Assembly: GCA_903789595.1 (NCBI GenBank) | Contig: CAIFEZ010000003.1 | Location: forward strand, 108,937-172,936 | DNA length: 64,000 bases | From: an uncultured eubacterium 1-6 | Lineage (GTDB): Bacteria; Bacillota; Clostridia; Lachnospirales; Lachnospiraceae | Direction of reading: 5' to 3' | Shown here: positions 26,100 to 32,537 of the stretch, one piece after another | How the letters are laid out: each line of letters opens with the position of its first letter | How positions within the stretch are numbered: position 1 is the first letter of the stretch | Notes under the pieces: model-generated | Databases searched by the model: none | What the model was told of the DNA's origin: nothing | Seen by the model: only the letters and a program-made list of their open reading frames with translations | Program-made: the position numbers and the translations under genes

Positions 26100-26909
26100 T
26101 TATGTGCGGCGGGTGCTGCCGTGAATATAATCCTCGAGATAATCGCGGACGGTGCCGATCAGGTACCAGACCGTCTCATAACGGATGAAATGCAGGGCGT
26201 TCTGATCCAGGAGAAACTGGTAGTTCACAGGAAATTCGTCGTCGCCGTCCCAGAACTGGAACCACACGGGGAAATTGTCGAACACCGGGAGAACGGCGCT
26301 TACGTCCGCACTTCCGGGCGACGGAGAACCGTGAACCGCGAGACAGGCATCCTTCAGCTCACTGGTTTTCCCCGCGAAGAGAGCCTTTTCACGGTCGGAG
26401 ACGAGTGAACTTGCGTGATAGGCGCCGATGATGCCGCCGAGCTTTGAAACAGATGCCCATTCGCCGGAGAGAACCGGTGTATCGTGCTCCATAGAATAGG
26501 TGAACATCTCGTATACTGTCATGGATATTCCCGGGGACGCCTTGCGGAAGCCGATCCCTGTGCCGTTCTCCTGTGCGGCATTGAGGGGTGTGTATTTTGT
26601 ATCATTCCCCAGGGATGATTTGTAAGACTTGTCTATCGCATGATCCGCCGCTTCCGGCGCCGTGGAGGAGATCATCGAAGGCCAGGGCGACTCAATCTGC
26701 ACCTCGCCGGTATCCCGGAGAATGCGTGCCGGGAAGGAAAGGTACCGGAAAGAGATAGAGGAGTCATCCGCTTCCAGTTGATTCCGTCGGATGATCTGTT
26801 CCTGGTCAAAGTCAAGGAAAAGGTGTCGGCCCGACTCCGTCATGAGATCGTAGTTATTCTGTTTTTTGTACTGCTCAATTGTGTTCTGTATCTTTTTATT
26901 CTTTTCCAT
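26100..26909 (-). CDS. Hypothetical protein (resembles DUF3786-type proteins; weak assignment)
   Basis: Start at the internal ATG 26909, which has the RBS agaggtga 7 nt upstream. 269 aa. The C-terminal segment NFPVWFQFWDGDDEFPVNYQFLLDQNALHFIRYETVWYL recalls DUF3786, but this is from memory only. Confidence 0.5.
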   Translation of the reverse strand: MEKNKKIQNTIEQYKKQNNYDLMTESGRHLFLDFDQEQIIRRNQLEADDSSISFRYLSFPARILRDTGEVQIESPWPSMISSTAPEAADHAIDKSYKSSLGNDTKYTPLNAAQENGTGIGFRKASPGISMTVYEMFTYSMEHDTPVLSGEWASVSKLGGIIGAYHASSLVSDREKALFAGKTSELKDACLAVHGSPSPGSADVSAVLPVFDNFPVWFQFWDGDDEFPVNYQFLLDQNALHFIRYETVWYLIGTVRDYLEDYIHGSTRRT

Positions 26910-27039
26910 ATTCTGTTCACCTCTTACATCTATACAAAGGACATTTCCCTGAGACAGAAACATCGAAGTATTCGTCATTCTGACTTCAGAATGTCTCCGG
27001 GTTTATCAAAACTTTCCGAGAAGACCCCAGCCAAATGTT

Positions 27040-27495
27040 TCATTTGGCCGGGGATGAATCGGCTGTTTTTGCACGCTTGTTGTAATGCCGTTTTGGGCGG
27101 CCCTGCTCTTCCACATATCTTTTCAATACGTCCAAAGTAACACCTCCTGAGGTTGCGATAAAATAACTGTCACTCCAGAACGAATCCTTCCACAGATACT
27201 TGCGGATCGTTTCTCCGTAATCACGGCGGAGTATTCTTGCCGAAACACCCTTCAGCACATTGACGATTTCCTTGATAGAGTATTTTGTCCCAAGGGATAC
27301 CAGGATGTGGACGTGATCCACATCTGTCTCCATCTGCAGAATTTTCCCCTCGTAATGCTCCAATATCCTTGTACACTCCCGTTTGCATGCTTCGGCGACT
27401 TCCCCGGTAAGGCATGGTTTCCGATACTTTACAACGAGGACGATATGGTATTCCAAAGCATAAACAGCGTGAGGACCATGTGTGTATTCTGTCAT
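27040..27495 (-). CDS. tnpA: IS200/IS605-family Y1 (HUH) transposase TnpA
   Basis: 151 aa with YHIVLVVKYRKPCL, the HUH motif DHVHILVS and the catalytic-Tyr region WSDSYFIATSGG. Confidence 0.9.
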   Translation of the reverse strand: MTEYTHGPHAVYALEYHIVLVVKYRKPCLTGEVAEACKRECTRILEHYEGKILQMETDVDHVHILVSLGTKYSIKEIVNVLKGVSARILRRDYGETIRKYLWKDSFWSDSYFIATSGGVTLDVLKRYVEEQGRPKRHYNKRAKTADSSPAK

Positions 27496-27541
27496 GTCCT
27501 GTCCCCTCTAAAATAATCACCACCAATGTGTTATAAATCAC

Positions 27542-27569
27542 TTGTACAATAGCATATATACGATATAAT
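27542..27569 (+). promoter_or_regulatory. Promoter for the tnpB-like gene
   Basis: TTGTAC (27542-27547), a 16-nt spacer, then TATAAT (27564-27569). The RBS ggagg lies at 27594-27598. Confidence 0.5.
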
Positions 27570-27607
27570 GTAAATATACACCAAATGTATTTCGGAGGCT
27601 TTTTTGC

Positions 27608-29290
27608 ATGAAAAAAACGCTGCTTTCGCGGCATATCCTGTTTGCTTCCTTAAGCCAGAAGGAAGTGGATACAATCAGGAATGATATCGCCCTGTTCAAC
27701 CAAATCAAACGCACGGTCACCAGAAGGAAGTCCGTATCGTGCGCTTCAGAGAAAGAAGCGGAGAAGACAGCGGACAAGCCTGACCTCCGCAGAAAGGAAA
27801 ATGCGGAGCTCCGGAAAAAACAACCGAAATCGGTGCACCTGCAGCTGAAGGAAGCATTCGGCACAGAAGACCATTTCACAAACAGTGCGCTCCGCTCTGC
27901 CAACGCCGCGATCCGGTCTGTCAAGGAACTGAAACAGATGAACCTTGACAGGGCCGAGTCAGACGTCGATGACATCACAGCCAAGATTAAGGACAAAAAG
28001 AAAAGGCTGAAAGCGCTCAACAATATGCAGGCATCCCTCGTCAAACGTTCGAAAGCCAAAAAGGCCGGCCGCCGTATTCCTGCCCCGTGTTCCAACCCGA
28101 TTGAGGTTTACAGGGACGGAAAGTGGTATATCACTTATTTCGGGAAAACCGTATCCGTTTATGAAAACGACTATCTTTTTGAGATCCGTTATCTCCGTCC
28201 GAAGATCAGGCAGCTGTCCGGAGCCATCAAGGCCCTTGTTTTGTGCAAAAACCGTCTGGAGCACAAGATCTCCCTGATGAAGGAGGACAAGGACGCTCAT
28301 ATCTGTTACGGAAGGAAAGACTTTTTCCGAAAACAGTCTACCGTATATGAAAACCAGCATGATGTATGGCTGTCCGGTTTTAGGAAACGCAGGAATAAAG
28401 CTCTTACGATTTCCGGGAGACAGGACGCGGACGGCGGGAACTTCCTCTTCCATTACGACCCGTTGTCACATACACTCTCTTACCGGTCACAGACTGGAAA
28501 AAGAACCATCGCGATTCCAAACGTTGTTTTTCCTTACGGACAGCCGGATGTTGACCACGCCGTAACAGTAAAGAAGCCGGAACGGAATGCGGTCACGTGG
28601 AGCATTGAGATCCACGGCCAGTCCTTCATCGTCAAATGCATGATAGAAGCTGTTTCGAATAAACGCATCAATGACGATTACAGCAACGGGTGTGTCGGGG
28701 TTGATTCCAACTACGACTGTCTCGCTGTAACAGAGACAGACGGAAGCGGCAACCTTCTGCGGCACCTGGTCATTCCCATTGATGTAACAGGAAAGTCCGG
28801 AAGCAACGAACAGTCCGTATCTAAGGCGCTGGACCAGGTTTTTGCCATATGCAGGGAGTCACACAAACCCTTCGCGATGGAGAGCCTGTCAATGAAATCC
28901 AAACCGCACCTGTATGGAGGAAAGAAACAGAACCGCCATATCAGCCTTTTCTCCGCGGATACTATTACCTGGCTTGCCGAAGGCAAGGCACTTCGTAATG
29001 GAGTGGCGTGCGCCTTTGTAAACCCGGCGTATACTTCACAGATTGGTAAGATGAAGTATATGCGGAGGTTTGGCCTCACCATCCACGAAGCCGCCTCCTT
29101 TGTAATAGCAAGAAGGGCGATGGGCATCCGTACAGAACGGCTGCCCGCGTGGATGCGGAGAGACCCTGTGGTGCAGAAAAAGAGGACTGCGAAAAACGCC
29201 GGCCGCAACGCATGGCGGGACGCATACACGCTGACGAAGAAGATCACTCCGGCGGAACGGATGCAGGGCCCACGCCCGTCATTTGCGTAA
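27608..29290 (+). CDS. Atypical TnpB-related protein (RuvC-like, no zinc ribbon, expanded N-terminal/REC region)
   Basis: 560 aa. RuvC-I is CVGVDSN (D366), RuvC-II is FAMESL (E425), followed by VNPAYTSQ. Only 17 aa then separate YTSQ from TIHEAASFVIARRA (E494 where canonical TnpB has D in DxNAAxNI). The protein contains no CxxC pair. Residues from about 40 to 160 are K/E/R-rich. Confidence 0.7.
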   Translation: MKKTLLSRHILFASLSQKEVDTIRNDIALFNQIKRTVTRRKSVSCASEKEAEKTADKPDLRRKENAELRKKQPKSVHLQLKEAFGTEDHFTNSALRSANAAIRSVKELKQMNLDRAESDVDDITAKIKDKKKRLKALNNMQASLVKRSKAKKAGRRIPAPCSNPIEVYRDGKWYITYFGKTVSVYENDYLFEIRYLRPKIRQLSGAIKALVLCKNRLEHKISLMKEDKDAHICYGRKDFFRKQSTVYENQHDVWLSGFRKRRNKALTISGRQDADGGNFLFHYDPLSHTLSYRSQTGKRTIAIPNVVFPYGQPDVDHAVTVKKPERNAVTWSIEIHGQSFIVKCMIEAVSNKRINDDYSNGCVGVDSNYDCLAVTETDGSGNLLRHLVIPIDVTGKSGSNEQSVSKALDQVFAICRESHKPFAMESLSMKSKPHLYGGKKQNRHISLFSADTITWLAEGKALRNGVACAFVNPAYTSQIGKMKYMRRFGLTIHEAASFVIARRAMGIRTERLPAWMRRDPVVQKKRTAKNAGRNAWRDAYTLTKKITPAERMQGPRPSFA

Positions 29291-29650
29291 CTGTTCCGGA
29301 AGGGGTATCAGGCAGTTTTTCATCTGTAAGCAAAGAAACGATTTGTTACTCGCAAACATCAGTATTCATGCCGTCAGGCAACATGCTTTTTCCTGTGGAC
29401 GAGGATCACGAAGCAGGGGACTGTGTGACGCAGTGTCTGGCGGCATCCGACAAAGATATGCACATGGATCCGCGTCACGCGGACGGGAAGCAATACCGGG
29501 CCCTGATCCGCGCTGAGAATCTCACGACATATCTTTCAGGTATTTCCGTCATGGTGATTAACGGAAACCGGCCCGCTGAGGTTCAGCGGCGGGCTCAAAA
29601 GAGGCCCCTTTCAAATCCCTTCGGGGATTTGGGAGTGGGAGCTTCACTTT
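29291..29650 (+). ncRNA. Candidate omega-RNA/reRNA scaffold and right-end region of the IS
   Basis: About 360 nt is non-coding and GC-rich, with consecutive stem-loops. These are tttccgt/acggaaa (29543-29567), ccgctga/tcagcgg (about 29571-29590) and aaatccc-ttcg-gggattt (29613-29630, a UUCG tetraloop). The composition turns AT-rich after about 29660. Confidence 0.4.
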
Positions 29651-29794
29651 AGTCAAATGAAAGAAATTAGGTCCTGCGATTCGTCGAAGAAGACTGATAT
29701 TTTTTGGACAATTTTCCGTAATAAAACTATTATATCACTGTCTTTCCGGAATATCTCGACAGATCGCAGGCGGTGATTATACGATCATGCATCG

Positions 29795-29823
29795 TTGACC
29801 TTATTGTTCCGGTTGCCTATAAT
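29795..29823 (+). promoter_or_regulatory. Sigma-70/SigA-type promoter
   Basis: TTGACC (29795-29800), a 17-nt spacer, then TATAAT (29818-29823). Confidence 0.6.
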
Positions 29824-29938
29824 AAAGAAGGATAGCGATTCAGCGCTCTGATCAAGAGATCCTGCGGTTTTCTCGGTGTGCTGAATATAGGTACCAGATA
29901 GTCGGCAAAAAATGCATCTTATAAAAAGGAGAACAGCT

Positions 29939-30337
29939 TTGAGTACAATTACAGGCATGAATCATGTGGCATTGAATTGTAATGGAAAAAAAGAGATGGA
30001 CGAGGTTGTCAATTTCTATTGCAACGTTCTTGGATTCAGGAAAACAGCCGGATGTTACGTCGAAGGACTGGGCAATATGGCGATGATTGATACCGGAACA
30101 GGCTCGATTGAGTTGTGGGACAATGCGGATCCGAAACGCGGAGATGGTGTGATCGGTCATCTGGCTTTGACCGTCGAGAATGCGGATGAAGCAGTTGAGA
30201 TTTTCCGCAAGGAGGGACTTCCGGTTGATTCCGAACCGGTTGATCTGGTGCTGGATACGGAACCGAAGATGAATATCCGGGTCGCATTCGTAAGAGGGAA
30301 GGCCGGAGAGTCGATTGAGATCTTCCAGGAGCGATAA
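29939..30337 (+). CDS. VOC-family (glyoxalase/bleomycin-resistance fold) protein
   Basis: A TTG start at 29939 lies 6 nt after the RBS aaggaga; the ORF-track ATG 29912 lacks an RBS. Motifs: MNHVALNC, GHLALTVENADEA and IEIFQE. Confidence 0.7.
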   Translation: MSTITGMNHVALNCNGKKEMDEVVNFYCNVLGFRKTAGCYVEGLGNMAMIDTGTGSIELWDNADPKRGDGVIGHLALTVENADEAVEIFRKEGLPVDSEPVDLVLDTEPKMNIRVAFVRGKAGESIEIFQER

Positions 30338-30375
30338 GGAGAACTGTCTGTTCTTTCTTGTGCGTGAGGGAAAAC

Positions 30376-30594
30376 GATGACAGTTATTGTGGACTGCTGT
30401 CCGGTGACCATAGGCGACAATGTCTTCTTCGGACCCGGGGTATCGCTTCTTACTCCCATGCATCCGTTTTGCTGGCAGGAGAGAAATCCCTATGTCAAGC
30501 AGGATGGAACGCTGACGGATCGGGAGTGCCATGCCGCGTGATCCGGGAAATTACCGATGCGGACAGGATGAATCCTCATCCGGAATCTGAATGA
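30376..30594 (+). pseudogene. Remnant of a hexapeptide-repeat sugar O-acetyltransferase (Maa/LacA type)
   Basis: It reads ...CCPVTIGDNVFFGPGVSLLTPMHPF...ERNPYVKQDGTLTDRECHAA*. After a frame shift the typical C-terminus VIREITDADRMNP follows. The N-terminal half is missing and there is an internal deletion/frameshift. Confidence 0.6.
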
Positions 30595-30944
30595 GCCGTT
30601 ATTCGTTGTGTGCGTATTGCGCATCAGATATGATTGCCTGACACGAATACTTCCAATATTCACATATTTCGATTCACTTATTATGAAAGGGGTGATCTGC
30701 ACAACTGGCTGGCTGTGCGGGTGGCCCCTTTGACATTGCTCTCAACCGACCGGGCCTCCGGCAATTCTTTCAAGCATTGACGGAAAAACTTTCCCTGTGC
30801 TATATTTATAAGGTTTAGACCGGAACGCCGCACGCGGAATGCCGCGTGGGGCTGCTGTATATTGCGCCGCGCGAAACACCGCGTGGAATGGATGGATCCT
30901 GCGGTCCGTGCGAGGACTCTGCGATCGGATTAGGAGTATAGAAC

Positions 30945-32537
30945 GTGGCTGATTATAGAAAAGAGATTCAAAAGAGACGTACCTTTGCGATTATTTCCCA
31001 CCCGGATGCCGGTAAGACGACATTGACGGAGAAATTCCTGCTGTACGGCGGCGCGATCAATCTGGCGGGCTCCGTCAAGGGAAAGGCGACGGCAAGGCAT
31101 GCGGTCTCGGACTGGATGGAGATTGAGAAGCAGAGGGGTATTTCCGTCACCTCGTCGGTTCTTCAGTTCAATTACGAGGGCTACTGCATCAACCTTCTGG
31201 ACACACCGGGACATCAGGATTTCTCGGAGGACACCTATCGTACGCTGATGGCCGCGGATTCCGCGGTGATGGTGATCGACGGAGGCAAGGGCGTGGAGCC
31301 GCAGACCAGAAAGCTGTTCAAGGTATGCGCCATGCGCCACATCCCGATTTTTACCTTCATCAACAAGATGGACCGGGATGCGAGAGATACCTTTGATCTG
31401 ATCGATGAGATCGAGAAGGAGCTCGGGATTCCGACATGTCCGGTCAACTGGCCGATCGGCTCCGGAAAGAGCTTCCGCGGCGTTTATGACCGCAACACGA
31501 ACAAGGTTCTGACCTTCTCTGATACCATGAAGGGGACGAAGGAGGGAAAGGAAGAAGAGATTTCTCTCGATGATCCGCATCTTCTGGATGTCATTACAGA
31601 GGACCAGAAGGAGCAGCTGGAGGAGGAGATGGAGCTTCTGAACGGTGCGGCGGAGGAATTCGACCAGGAGAAGGTGACCGCCGGAAAGCTCTCCCCGGTT
31701 TTCTTCGGGTCGGCTCTTACAAACTTCGGCGTGGAGACCTTCCTGCAGCACTTCCTGAAGATGACGATGCCTCCGCTGGCACGGATGTCCGACGAAGGCC
31801 TGATCGATCCGATGCAGGAGGATTTTTCCGCCTTTGTCTTCAAGATTCAGGCGAATATGAACAAGAATCACAGGGACCGGCTCGCTTTCATGCGCATCTG
31901 CTCGGGGCGCTTTGAAGCGGACCGTGAGATCTATTATGTGCAGGGCGACAAGAAGATGCGGCTTCTGCAGCCGCAGCAGATGATGGCGGACGACCGCCAC
32001 GTGGTGAACGAGGCGTATGCGGGAGATATCATCGGCGTTTTCGATCCGGGTATATTTTCGATCGGGGACACGGTGTGCGCGCCTGGCAAAAAGTTCCGTT
32101 TCGAAGGCATCCCGACCTTTGCGCCCGAGCATTTCGCGAGGGTTACGCTGATTGACTCGATGAAGAGAAAACAGTTCGTGAAGGGAATCCGCCAGATCGC
32201 GCAGGAGGGCGCGATTCAGGTCTTTCAGGAGATTCACGGCGGAATGGAGGAGATCATCGTCGGCGTTGTCGGTGTTCTTCAGTTCGATGTGCTCAAGTTC
32301 CGGATCGAAAATGAATACAATGTGGACATCCGTCTTGAGATGCTCCCCTATGAATATATCCGCTGGATTGAGAACTGGCACGAGGTGGATCTGGACCATA
32401 TCGTCGGAACCTCAGACATGAAGAAGGTAGAGGATATGAAGGGGCAGCCGCTTCTGCTCTTTGTCAATTCCTGGTCTGTGGGGATGGTTCTGGACCGGAA
32501 CGAGGGCCTGGTGCTGACGGAGTTTTCGAGGAACTGA
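30945..32537 (+). CDS. prfC: Peptide chain release factor 3
   Basis: GTG start, 530 aa. GTPase motifs are RRTFAIISHPDAGKTTLTEK, DTPGHQDF and NKMD, and RF3-like domains follow. Confidence 0.9.
   Translation: MADYRKEIQKRRTFAIISHPDAGKTTLTEKFLLYGGAINLAGSVKGKATARHAVSDWMEIEKQRGISVTSSVLQFNYEGYCINLLDTPGHQDFSEDTYRTLMAADSAVMVIDGGKGVEPQTRKLFKVCAMRHIPIFTFINKMDRDARDTFDLIDEIEKELGIPTCPVNWPIGSGKSFRGVYDRNTNKVLTFSDTMKGTKEGKEEEISLDDPHLLDVITEDQKEQLEEEMELLNGAAEEFDQEKVTAGKLSPVFFGSALTNFGVETFLQHFLKMTMPPLARMSDEGLIDPMQEDFSAFVFKIQANMNKNHRDRLAFMRICSGRFEADREIYYVQGDKKMRLLQPQQMMADDRHVVNEAYAGDIIGVFDPGIFSIGDTVCAPGKKFRFEGIPTFAPEHFARVTLIDSMKRKQFVKGIRQIAQEGAIQVFQEIHGGMEEIIVGVVGVLQFDVLKFRIENEYNVDIRLEMLPYEYIRWIENWHEVDLDHIVGTSDMKKVEDMKGQPLLLFVNSWSVGMVLDRNEGLVLTEFSRN

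Follow-up and report, generated by a model that had tools for sequence, protein, structure and literature searches.

The 357-nt tail that follows a tnpB-like gene in a 64,000-nt stretch of DNA from an uncultured Lachnospiraceae bacterium (contig CAIFEZ010000003.1; hereafter the window, meaning the whole stretch) probably holds the guide-RNA gene of an IS200/IS605-type transposon, with the TnpB-like RuvC protein encoded just upstream as the partner of the RNA. We put the probability of this reading at roughly 0.85. Cas12 descends from TnpB nucleases, which are in development as very small genome editors; to our knowledge, their guide RNAs have been studied almost exclusively in the ‘typical’ and ‘derived’ clades, whose members have a zinc ribbon and a D-E-D active site. 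The locus described here bears on whether guided cleavage can persist once the zinc ribbon and the RuvC-III aspartate are gone, and it provides a testable system, with element ends, a predicted target-adjacent motif (TAM), RNA limits and a fold, for a large branch of the family that has been catalogued but is uncharacterised. A specialist would expect to find an omega RNA beside a TnpB-like gene, and the surprise is moderate: the locus presents a known class of RNA in a new structural form, tied to an uncharacterised TnpB branch.

Limits of the element and layout of the tail

The ends of the element are fixed by empty sites. In four DNA metagenomes, contigs carrying the flanks that the element has in the window run from 27006 directly to 29648, skipping 2641 nt with zero ambiguous letters, and the empty site in all four runs reads GGGTTTAT followed immediately by TTTAGTC. 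Because the joint falls at 29648, the right end lies at 29647, not near 29300, and the entire tail belongs to the element. This bears out the original prediction, made from the letters of the window, of a long structured non-coding tail of about 360 nt after the stop codon. The same prediction had placed a switch to AT-rich DNA at about 29660; the drop in G+C content is real (from about 0.5–0.58 in the tail to about 0.41 past 29650), but the true boundary is 29647/29648. The features of the element and its immediate flank are as follows (positions in the window, strand, description and basis).

27002–27006, plus strand: TTTAT target pentanucleotide at the left junction, part of the flank and kept in the empty site; predicted TAM (empty-site joint)
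27007–29647, plus strand: complete IS200/IS605-type element, 2641 bp, from CAAAAC... to ...GCTTCAC, with no target-site duplication (empty-site joint)
27025–27053, plus strand: left-end subterminal imperfect palindrome CCCCAGCCAAATG-TTT-CATTTGGCCGGGG, predicted binding hairpin for TnpA on the top strand (DNA fold, z = −3.8)
27040–27495, minus strand: tnpA, encoding a Y1 (HUH) transposase of 151 amino acids (aa) (Pfam Y1_Tnp PF01797, 1.2e-38; NCBIfam transpos_IS200 NF033573, 3.9e-39)
27608–29290, plus strand: tnpB-like gene, 560 aa (open reading frame (ORF), stop codon 29288–29290)
29291–29375, plus strand: spacer from the stop codon to the RNA 5′ end, 85 nt, the least conserved part of the element (nucleotide identity)
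29376–29647, plus strand: putative omega RNA (reRNA) scaffold, 272 nt, the best conserved part of the element (identity, covariation, transcript)

The same limits recur at other insertion sites. TTTAT or a variant of the form NTTAT (ATTAT or CTTAT) stands before CAA... at 11 of 11 independent left junctions. Contigs from other insertion sites start matching the window at 27002, left-side similarity among copies begins at TTTATCAAAAC, and right-side similarity among aligned copies stops sharply at ...GGGAGCTTCAC(T). Genes for proteins 84–91% identical to the TnpB-like protein lie in no fewer than five unrelated genomic contexts, with differing flanks. Insertion 3′ of a fixed motif, the lack of a target duplication and precise excision are all seen through the empty sites, and the element is polymorphic in nature, that is, recently mobile.

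The element has the traits of the IS200/IS605 group, namely a Y1 TnpA and subterminal hairpins on the same strand at both ends, without terminal inverted repeats; no named insertion sequence matched it in the collections searched, including a plasmid collection. With elements of the IS608/ISDra2 type it shares the Y1 HUH transposase, insertion 3′ of a short motif with no duplication, and similar hairpins on one strand. It differs from them in that tnpA (minus strand) and the tnpB-like gene (plus strand) are divergent, and in its TTTAT target; IS608 targets TTAC and ISDra2 targets TTGAT.

Nucleotide identity to the window in the relatives at loci L005, L176 and L177, respectively, divides the tail into two parts.

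27608–29290, ORF: 0.84, 0.71, 0.67
29291–29375, spacer: 0.75, 0.46, 0.44
29376–29647, RNA block: 0.93, 0.82, 0.74

The tail had been proposed to be a guide-RNA scaffold as a whole. This stands for 272 of its 357 nt, whereas the first 85 nt form the variable spacer, which is far shorter in L011–L014. A GTAAACA-like motif recurs in the variable spacers of several relatives (29336–29375 in the window; L176–L179), reading CTGTAAGCAAAG in the window and TTGTAAACAATG, CCTGTAAACAAAG and CAGTAAACAAG elsewhere; its role might be that of a promoter or of a signal for processing.

Two ORFs, 29149–29652 and 29283–29516, do exist in the tail, and the earlier view of the tail as non-coding holds, as the frame is not conserved. 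In L176, a relative with 72% identity, the longest open frame in the tail is 56 aa. The tail is non-coding because the long frame is closed in L176, L016 and L179.

A structured RNA and its transcript in relatives

Computed with RNAalifold from six close sequences, the consensus structure of the 272-nt block contains 82 pairs in six helices, which we denote P1–P6.

29378–29431, plus strand: P1 (RNAalifold consensus)
29433–29446, plus strand: P2 (RNAalifold consensus)
29447–29540, plus strand: P3 (RNAalifold consensus)
29543–29567, plus strand: P4, hairpin UUUCCGU/ACGGAAA of 7 bp (29543–29549/29561–29567) with an 11-nt loop, CAUGGUGAUUA (covariation)
29569–29596, plus strand: P5, 10 bp in the covarying register (29569–29578/29587–29596) (covariation)
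29601–29645, plus strand: P6, terminal imperfect hairpin with a UUCG loop and a core at 29613–29630 (covariation)

Three of these helices had been read from the sequence as consecutive stem-loops of 7 bp each. The first, at 29543–29567, is as described and is supported by covariation. The second, drawn at about 29571–29590, exists and covaries but really occupies the 10-bp register given above, and the UUCG hairpin at 29613–29630, which likewise exists and covaries, is only the core of the longer imperfect stem P6. The helices P1–P3, spanning 29378–29540, are additional.

Because MAFFT misaligned the diverged RNAs, we used covariance models. A full-length model (R1), built from the six close sequences, aligns relatives down to 41–50% protein identity. 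In the resulting alignment of ten sequences, 94.2% of cells pair, against 35–48% when the partners are slid, and 45 of the 82 pairs have changed on both sides, against 8–13 when slid; none of 500 shuffles reached the observed values. A 107-nt model of the P4–P6 module (R2) matches 42 further loci, which represent 21 distinct sequences; every match is downstream of the gene and on its strand. Across these 21 sequences 93% of cells pair (29–60% when slid) and 28 of the 36 pairs have changed on both sides, with compensatory pairs at 7/7 positions in P4, 9/10 in P5 and 11/11 in the inner part of P6. For P4 the fraction of paired cells reaches 98.6%, and the changes can be read by eye, different relatives having UUUCCGU/ACGGAAA, AACCCGG/CCGGGUU or AAUGGCC/GGCCGUU; within the nearer clade the P4 loop keeps the sequence GGUGAWUA. 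Covarying structure and conservation both end at 29645–29647. Conservation and covariation among homologous elements, to which the original prediction had looked for a check, are thus present, over six helices. We also considered a pseudoknot between the apical loop of P1 (GAUCAC) and the P4 loop (GUGAU) and set it aside as unsupported: the two segments are nearly invariant, and the sole variable position is uncompensated.

In contigs from relatives, the 3′ end of the ORF together with the spacer (29216–29340) is swapped for unrelated sequence (joint 29215 to 29341, with 123 other letters), and the P3 domain is swapped for unrelated sequence of similar length (joint 29446 to 29578, with 131 other letters). 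P1/P2 and P5/P6 are retained in the contigs with a replaced P3. Since the spacer and P3 are replaced while P1/P2 and P5/P6 are kept, the spacer and P3 appear to be swappable modules.

An nhmmer profile of the RNA reaches only relatives with at least 41% protein identity, R1 gives zero matches in Bacillaceae loci and R2 gives weak matches in copies from Bacillus yapensis (E 0.03–1), so beyond the terminal hairpin these comparisons do not establish that the RNA is homologous throughout the protein family.

That terminal hairpin, P6, has a counterpart at the other end of the element. P6 and the left-end hairpin share a CCCC..CCAAA/TTTGG..GGGG stem design in the window, L013 and L179, and the two hairpins change together in L013 and L179; for P6 and the left end of the window's element the common design can be written CCCC..CAAAT/ATTTG..GGGG. 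P1–P5 have no counterpart at the left end. IS200/IS605 elements require subterminal hairpins at both ends, which TnpA recognises. Given its resemblance to the left-end hairpin, P6 probably has a dual role, serving the RNA as its stem next to the guide and serving TnpA, in single-stranded DNA (ssDNA), as the right-end recognition site. P6 also overlaps a sub-threshold match to the Rfam family CRISPR-DR17 at 29608–29632 (23.4 bits against a gathering score of 42, E 0.41), probably a chance match. The resemblance recalls the proposed descent of crRNA repeats from the 3′ stems of omega RNAs. In the 64-kb window the UUCG hairpin is present in a single copy with no array, and a repeat search gave short chance pairs only.

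Transcript evidence comes from bovine-gut metatranscriptomes, which contain relatives 90–95% identical to the window. In four runs from two studies (X26, X27 and X36; X28), contigs at a depth of 150–720 cover only the interval from 29376 or 29379 to the right end; the depth of the tnpB-like ORF in the same four runs is 0–30. Adapter sequence abuts both ends of this RNA. At the 5′ end, the adapter in X28 lies immediately before AGA-CAAC..., which corresponds to position 29376, and L176 likewise has AGA there. At the 3′ end, the contigs in X26 and X27 continue for 12–14 nt past the right end into site-specific flank before the adapter begins. The transcribed flanks of the relatives, CCGAAACCGTGC, (T)AACACCCGAAGCC and (..)ACAGCCCCGGCG, differ from locus to locus, and (T)AACACCCGAAGCC is the DNA flank in X12, X22 and X24. 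The relatives therefore produce a discrete RNA of about 285 nt with a flank-derived 3′ part, the mark of an omega RNA. The corresponding part of the window would be the following.

29648–29661, plus strand: flank predicted to be transcribed as guide (TTTAGTCAAATGAA...), its length taken from relatives (relatives’ RNA contigs)

The proposal of an omega RNA or reRNA scaffold running to the right end is accordingly supported from four sides, by the mapped end, by conservation and covariation, by the relatives’ transcript and by the missing zinc ribbon of the protein, and the stable RNA that it foresaw is found in these relatives as a discrete and abundant species. No consensus sigma-70 promoter was found before 29376, and a weak TATTCA 7 nt upstream of the RNA 5′ end is not conserved in relatives; the 5′ end therefore probably arises by processing, the RNA being cut from a read-through tnpB transcript. 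Published self-processing of the guide RNA by TnpB provides an analogy for such a 5′ end (PMC10278001).

The TnpB-like protein, the proposed function and its rivals

In an alignment of 30 family members, D366 of RuvC-I (GVDSN) is invariant and E425 of RuvC-II (AMESL) is nearly invariant. Motif III is IHEAAS, within IHEAASFVIARR, in which H493 and A496 are invariant across the 30 members and there is no aspartate. Only 13 residues separate NPAYTSQ from IHEAAS. The original prediction had considered the case of a protein that lacks the zinc-ribbon domain, and this is what is seen: there is no cysteine after residue 470 and thus no zinc ribbon, and Pfam gives no match for the 560-aa protein. NCBIfam matches are weak and confined to residues 405–498 (guided_TnpB, TIGR01766 and Cas12f2), with guided_TnpB scoring 30.6 bits over 424–498, below its cut-off of 100. 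An AlphaFold2 model has a pLDDT of 84 and a fold like that of TnpB and Cas12; its best Foldseek matches are Cas12k/g/f/e, TnpB of ISFba1 and RuvC, at low TM-scores of 0.2–0.43. A sequence search of the PDB gave RuvC-II matches to Cas12j/X only. The family is large, with 1,008 clusters at 50% identity matching at E <= 1e-30, and it is multi-copy in genomes of Bacillus yapensis, Halolactibacillus and Ectobacillus.

These features recall RIIIr-4, a major TnpB clade in which the RuvC-III aspartate is replaced by histidine and the C4 zinc finger is lost, and which has been predicted to be active (Altae-Tran et al. 2023, PMC10691335); the members highlighted there are MazE-associated and viral (PMC10691335). 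Both defining traits are present in the TnpB-like protein (H493 and the missing C4 zinc finger), and judged by its sequence the protein fits the RIIIr-4 clade. The sole RIIIr-4 representative that we compared, the truncated Nocardiopsis protein #39, is 30% identical over 67 aa (BLASTP, E 5e-5) and has the RuvC-I motif GVDxNxDxLA in common with it. The present family differs from the published RIIIr-4 members in belonging to Bacillota, in its size of about 560 aa and in its association with a Y1 TnpA. In the searchable literature we found no paper characterising the RNA of this clade, no validated omega RNA or TAM for it, and no later work on the clade.

In the literature, TnpB omega RNAs come from the right end of the element and carry a guide derived from the flank. 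The RNA described here resembles them (for example that of ISDra2; PMC10278001) in lying on the tnpB strand at the right end, in having a scaffold that stops at the element boundary with the flank as guide, in a TAM that would equal the transposon target motif 5′ of the left end (here predicted), and in being discrete, abundant and structured, with a 5′ end probably made by processing. It differs in having no sequence or Rfam similarity to them, in a partner without the zinc ribbon and the RuvC-III aspartate, and in a scaffold that starts 86 nt after the stop codon; typically, although not obligatorily, the scaffold overlaps the 3′ end of the ORF. With canonical TnpB proteins (OrfB_IS605 plus OrfB_Zn_ribbon) the protein shares the RuvC-I aspartate and the RuvC-II glutamate but not the RuvC-III aspartate (DRDxN/NADxN) or the C4 zinc ribbon. 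Its best structural matches, Cas12f, Cas12k and Cas12g with their tracrRNA–crRNA, are similarly compact RuvC effectors that depend on a large structured RNA; in contrast to those systems, the locus has no CRISPR array, adaptation genes or zinc ribbon, and its guide would come from the flank rather than from spacers.

The length of the tail has a simple explanation. Scaffolds of 106 to 338 nt and more have been published for omega RNAs (Nety et al. 2023, PMC10278001, Supplementary file 2), so that 272 nt falls at the long end of the range and is not exceptional. Because the ORF ends earlier and a spacer intervenes in the lineage of the window, the long tail mainly reflects separation of gene and RNA, not an exceptional size of the RNA. 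The original prediction had suggested that a larger RNA compensates for the missing zinc ribbon. This finds no support: the Bacillaceae relatives are also free of a zinc ribbon, and in the Bacillus yapensis copies among them (L026–L069, for example L034:4189-4298) the right end follows about 95–110 nt past the stop codon. The weakly matched P4–P6 module begins about 13 nt before the stop codon in that species, where the rest of any RNA probably overlaps the longer ORF. At least ten near-identical copies of this related element, with a right end at ...CCCCTTCCTCAAAAATCCATTTGGATTTTAGGTGGGGGTAGTTCAA and a longer ORF C terminus, occur in one Bacillus yapensis genome.

Taken together, these results suggest a guide-directed retention cycle. 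The 272-nt scaffold (29376–29647), transcribed on the tnpB strand in close relatives, would fold into its six helices and carry about 12–14 nt or more of flank as its guide. Cut out of a read-through tnpB transcript, it would bind the TnpB-like protein. Excision by TnpA would rejoin TTTAT to the right flank, giving a donor site in which TTTAT directly precedes TTTAGTCAAATG...; because the element always lies 3′ of TTTAT, and because excision rejoins this motif to the flank, the complex should recognise the emptied donor site, with TTTAT as TAM and the flank as the match to the guide. The D-E-H RuvC site would then cut the donor site, and recombination with an element-bearing copy would restore the element, as in TnpB homing or retention. 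In this scheme the binding and processing of the RNA by the protein, the use of the TAM and DNA cleavage by the D-E-H site are what we infer from the analysis as a whole. Whether the locus represents the first defined RNA–protein pair of a RIIIr-4-like branch, with a working D-E-H nuclease, a TTTAT TAM and a 272-nt scaffold separate from the ORF, is in our estimate an even bet. If it does, the zinc ribbon and the third acidic residue would be dispensable for guided cleavage, and the gene–spacer–RNA layout would resemble a step towards the separately encoded guide of type V CRISPR systems.

Several observations weigh against a guide RNA with a TnpB-like partner. On the protein side, the canonical RuvC-III aspartate and the zinc ribbon are both absent, and E494, beside H493, is Q or V in some members. 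Nocardiopsis #39, the one orthologue from RIIIr-4 that the searchable literature yielded, showed no activity in a TAM screen (PMC10278001), so guided cleavage is not assured. The exact sequence of the window occurs in no RNA run, the transcripts being contigs of the 90–95% identical relatives. These contigs are strandless and their strand is suggested by adapter orientation alone, which fits a plus-strand RNA, if weakly, provided that the libraries are of the dUTP type. At 12–14 nt the guide seen is short, and it may have been trimmed. Each of the two covariation alignments was fitted to a model, which inflates pairing; this is mitigated by the slid controls and by the MAFFT-only alignments A5 and A8, in which many compensatory pairs are already present. 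The fold of the single sequence is unremarkable (z = −1.8 for 29376–29648 and −2.65 for 29200–29680), so the case rests on comparative and transcript evidence. A permissive search of 26500–30500 gave no Rfam family above threshold for the RNA, and the original idea of recognising it by Rfam models came to nothing.

Some of these points would suit a stable processed 3′ untranslated region or a small regulatory RNA, controlling tnpA or tnpB or titrating the protein, with the protein itself inactive or RNA-independent. The non-canonical motif III, the variation at E494, the inactive RIIIr-4 orthologue and the lack of the ORF overlap seen in most omega RNAs all lean that way. We nevertheless judge such a role unlikely, because a 3′ end 12–14 nt inside a site-variable flank is the hallmark of a flank-derived guide and would be purposeless for a fixed regulator; D366 and H493 are, moreover, invariant and E425 nearly so across the family, and the elements are multi-copy and polymorphic and hence recently mobile. 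A purely cis-acting DNA function, in which the conserved structure provides ssDNA hairpins for TnpA and the RNA is incidental read-through, draws on the close resemblance of P6 to the left-end hairpin, on the joint change of the two between relatives and on the need of IS200/IS605 elements for subterminal hairpins at both ends. TnpA hairpins would explain about 45 nt, however, not a 272-nt block with five more covarying helices. The frequent G-U pairs in the helices fit RNA better than DNA, and incidental read-through would not give an RNA with discrete ends at 10–100 times the depth of the ORF, which makes this account very unlikely.

There is hardly any chance that the tail encodes a small protein, for which gene callers propose an ORF from the ATG at 29368 (MPSGNMLFPVDEDHEAGD...) in L003, L007 and L008. 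A frame of 94–124 codons is indeed open across the tail in the window, L001, L003 and L005, and the indel of 12 nt that separates L001 and L003 from the window is in frame. Against this, the frame is closed in L176, L016 and L179 and, where open, crosses the right end into the flank, so that its end differs at each site. Substitutions in the helices are compensatory and lack a three-base period, there is no ribosome-binding site, and the RNA begins only 3′ of the ATG. We consider it equally far-fetched that the block is a remnant CRISPR repeat or another known RNA family, such as a group I intron (IStron) or a riboswitch: the sub-threshold CRISPR-DR17 match speaks for it, but the matched hairpin is the right-end hairpin of the transposon, occurs once in 64 kb without an array, and is accompanied by no other Rfam match at E up to 10. 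None of these rivals explains the five extra covarying helices together with a 3′ end that contains flank, and we retain a guide RNA acting with the TnpB-like protein as the best explanation. For annotation, the consequence is that an RNA family is missing from Rfam and that gene callers put spurious ORFs on the RNA.

Neighbouring genes

In the window, the first convincing gene 3′ of the stop codon of the tnpB-like gene encodes a glyoxalase and begins at 29912. Further downstream, a 530-aa ORF (30945–32537, plus strand) resembles a GTPase of the peptide-chain release factor 3 type; the 489-aa ORF that overlaps it in antisense (30930–32399) is probably spurious.

Three observations concern copies in relatives. 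At L001, a 271-aa ORF (L001:2622-3437) has been called across the left end; it starts within the element and probably represents an artefact or a fusion. The copy at L001/L002:5938-7633 adjoins an AcrVA2-like gene (PF26125) and a gene for a RusA resolvase, which suggests a prophage context. The copy in L005 adjoins a gene for an IscB-like protein of 512 aa (L005:1941-3479), another OMEGA-type nuclease, with an RRXRR domain (PF14239); just upstream of this gene, at L005:1870-1912, lies a weak nhmmer match to the core of the RNA (E 0.05–0.08).

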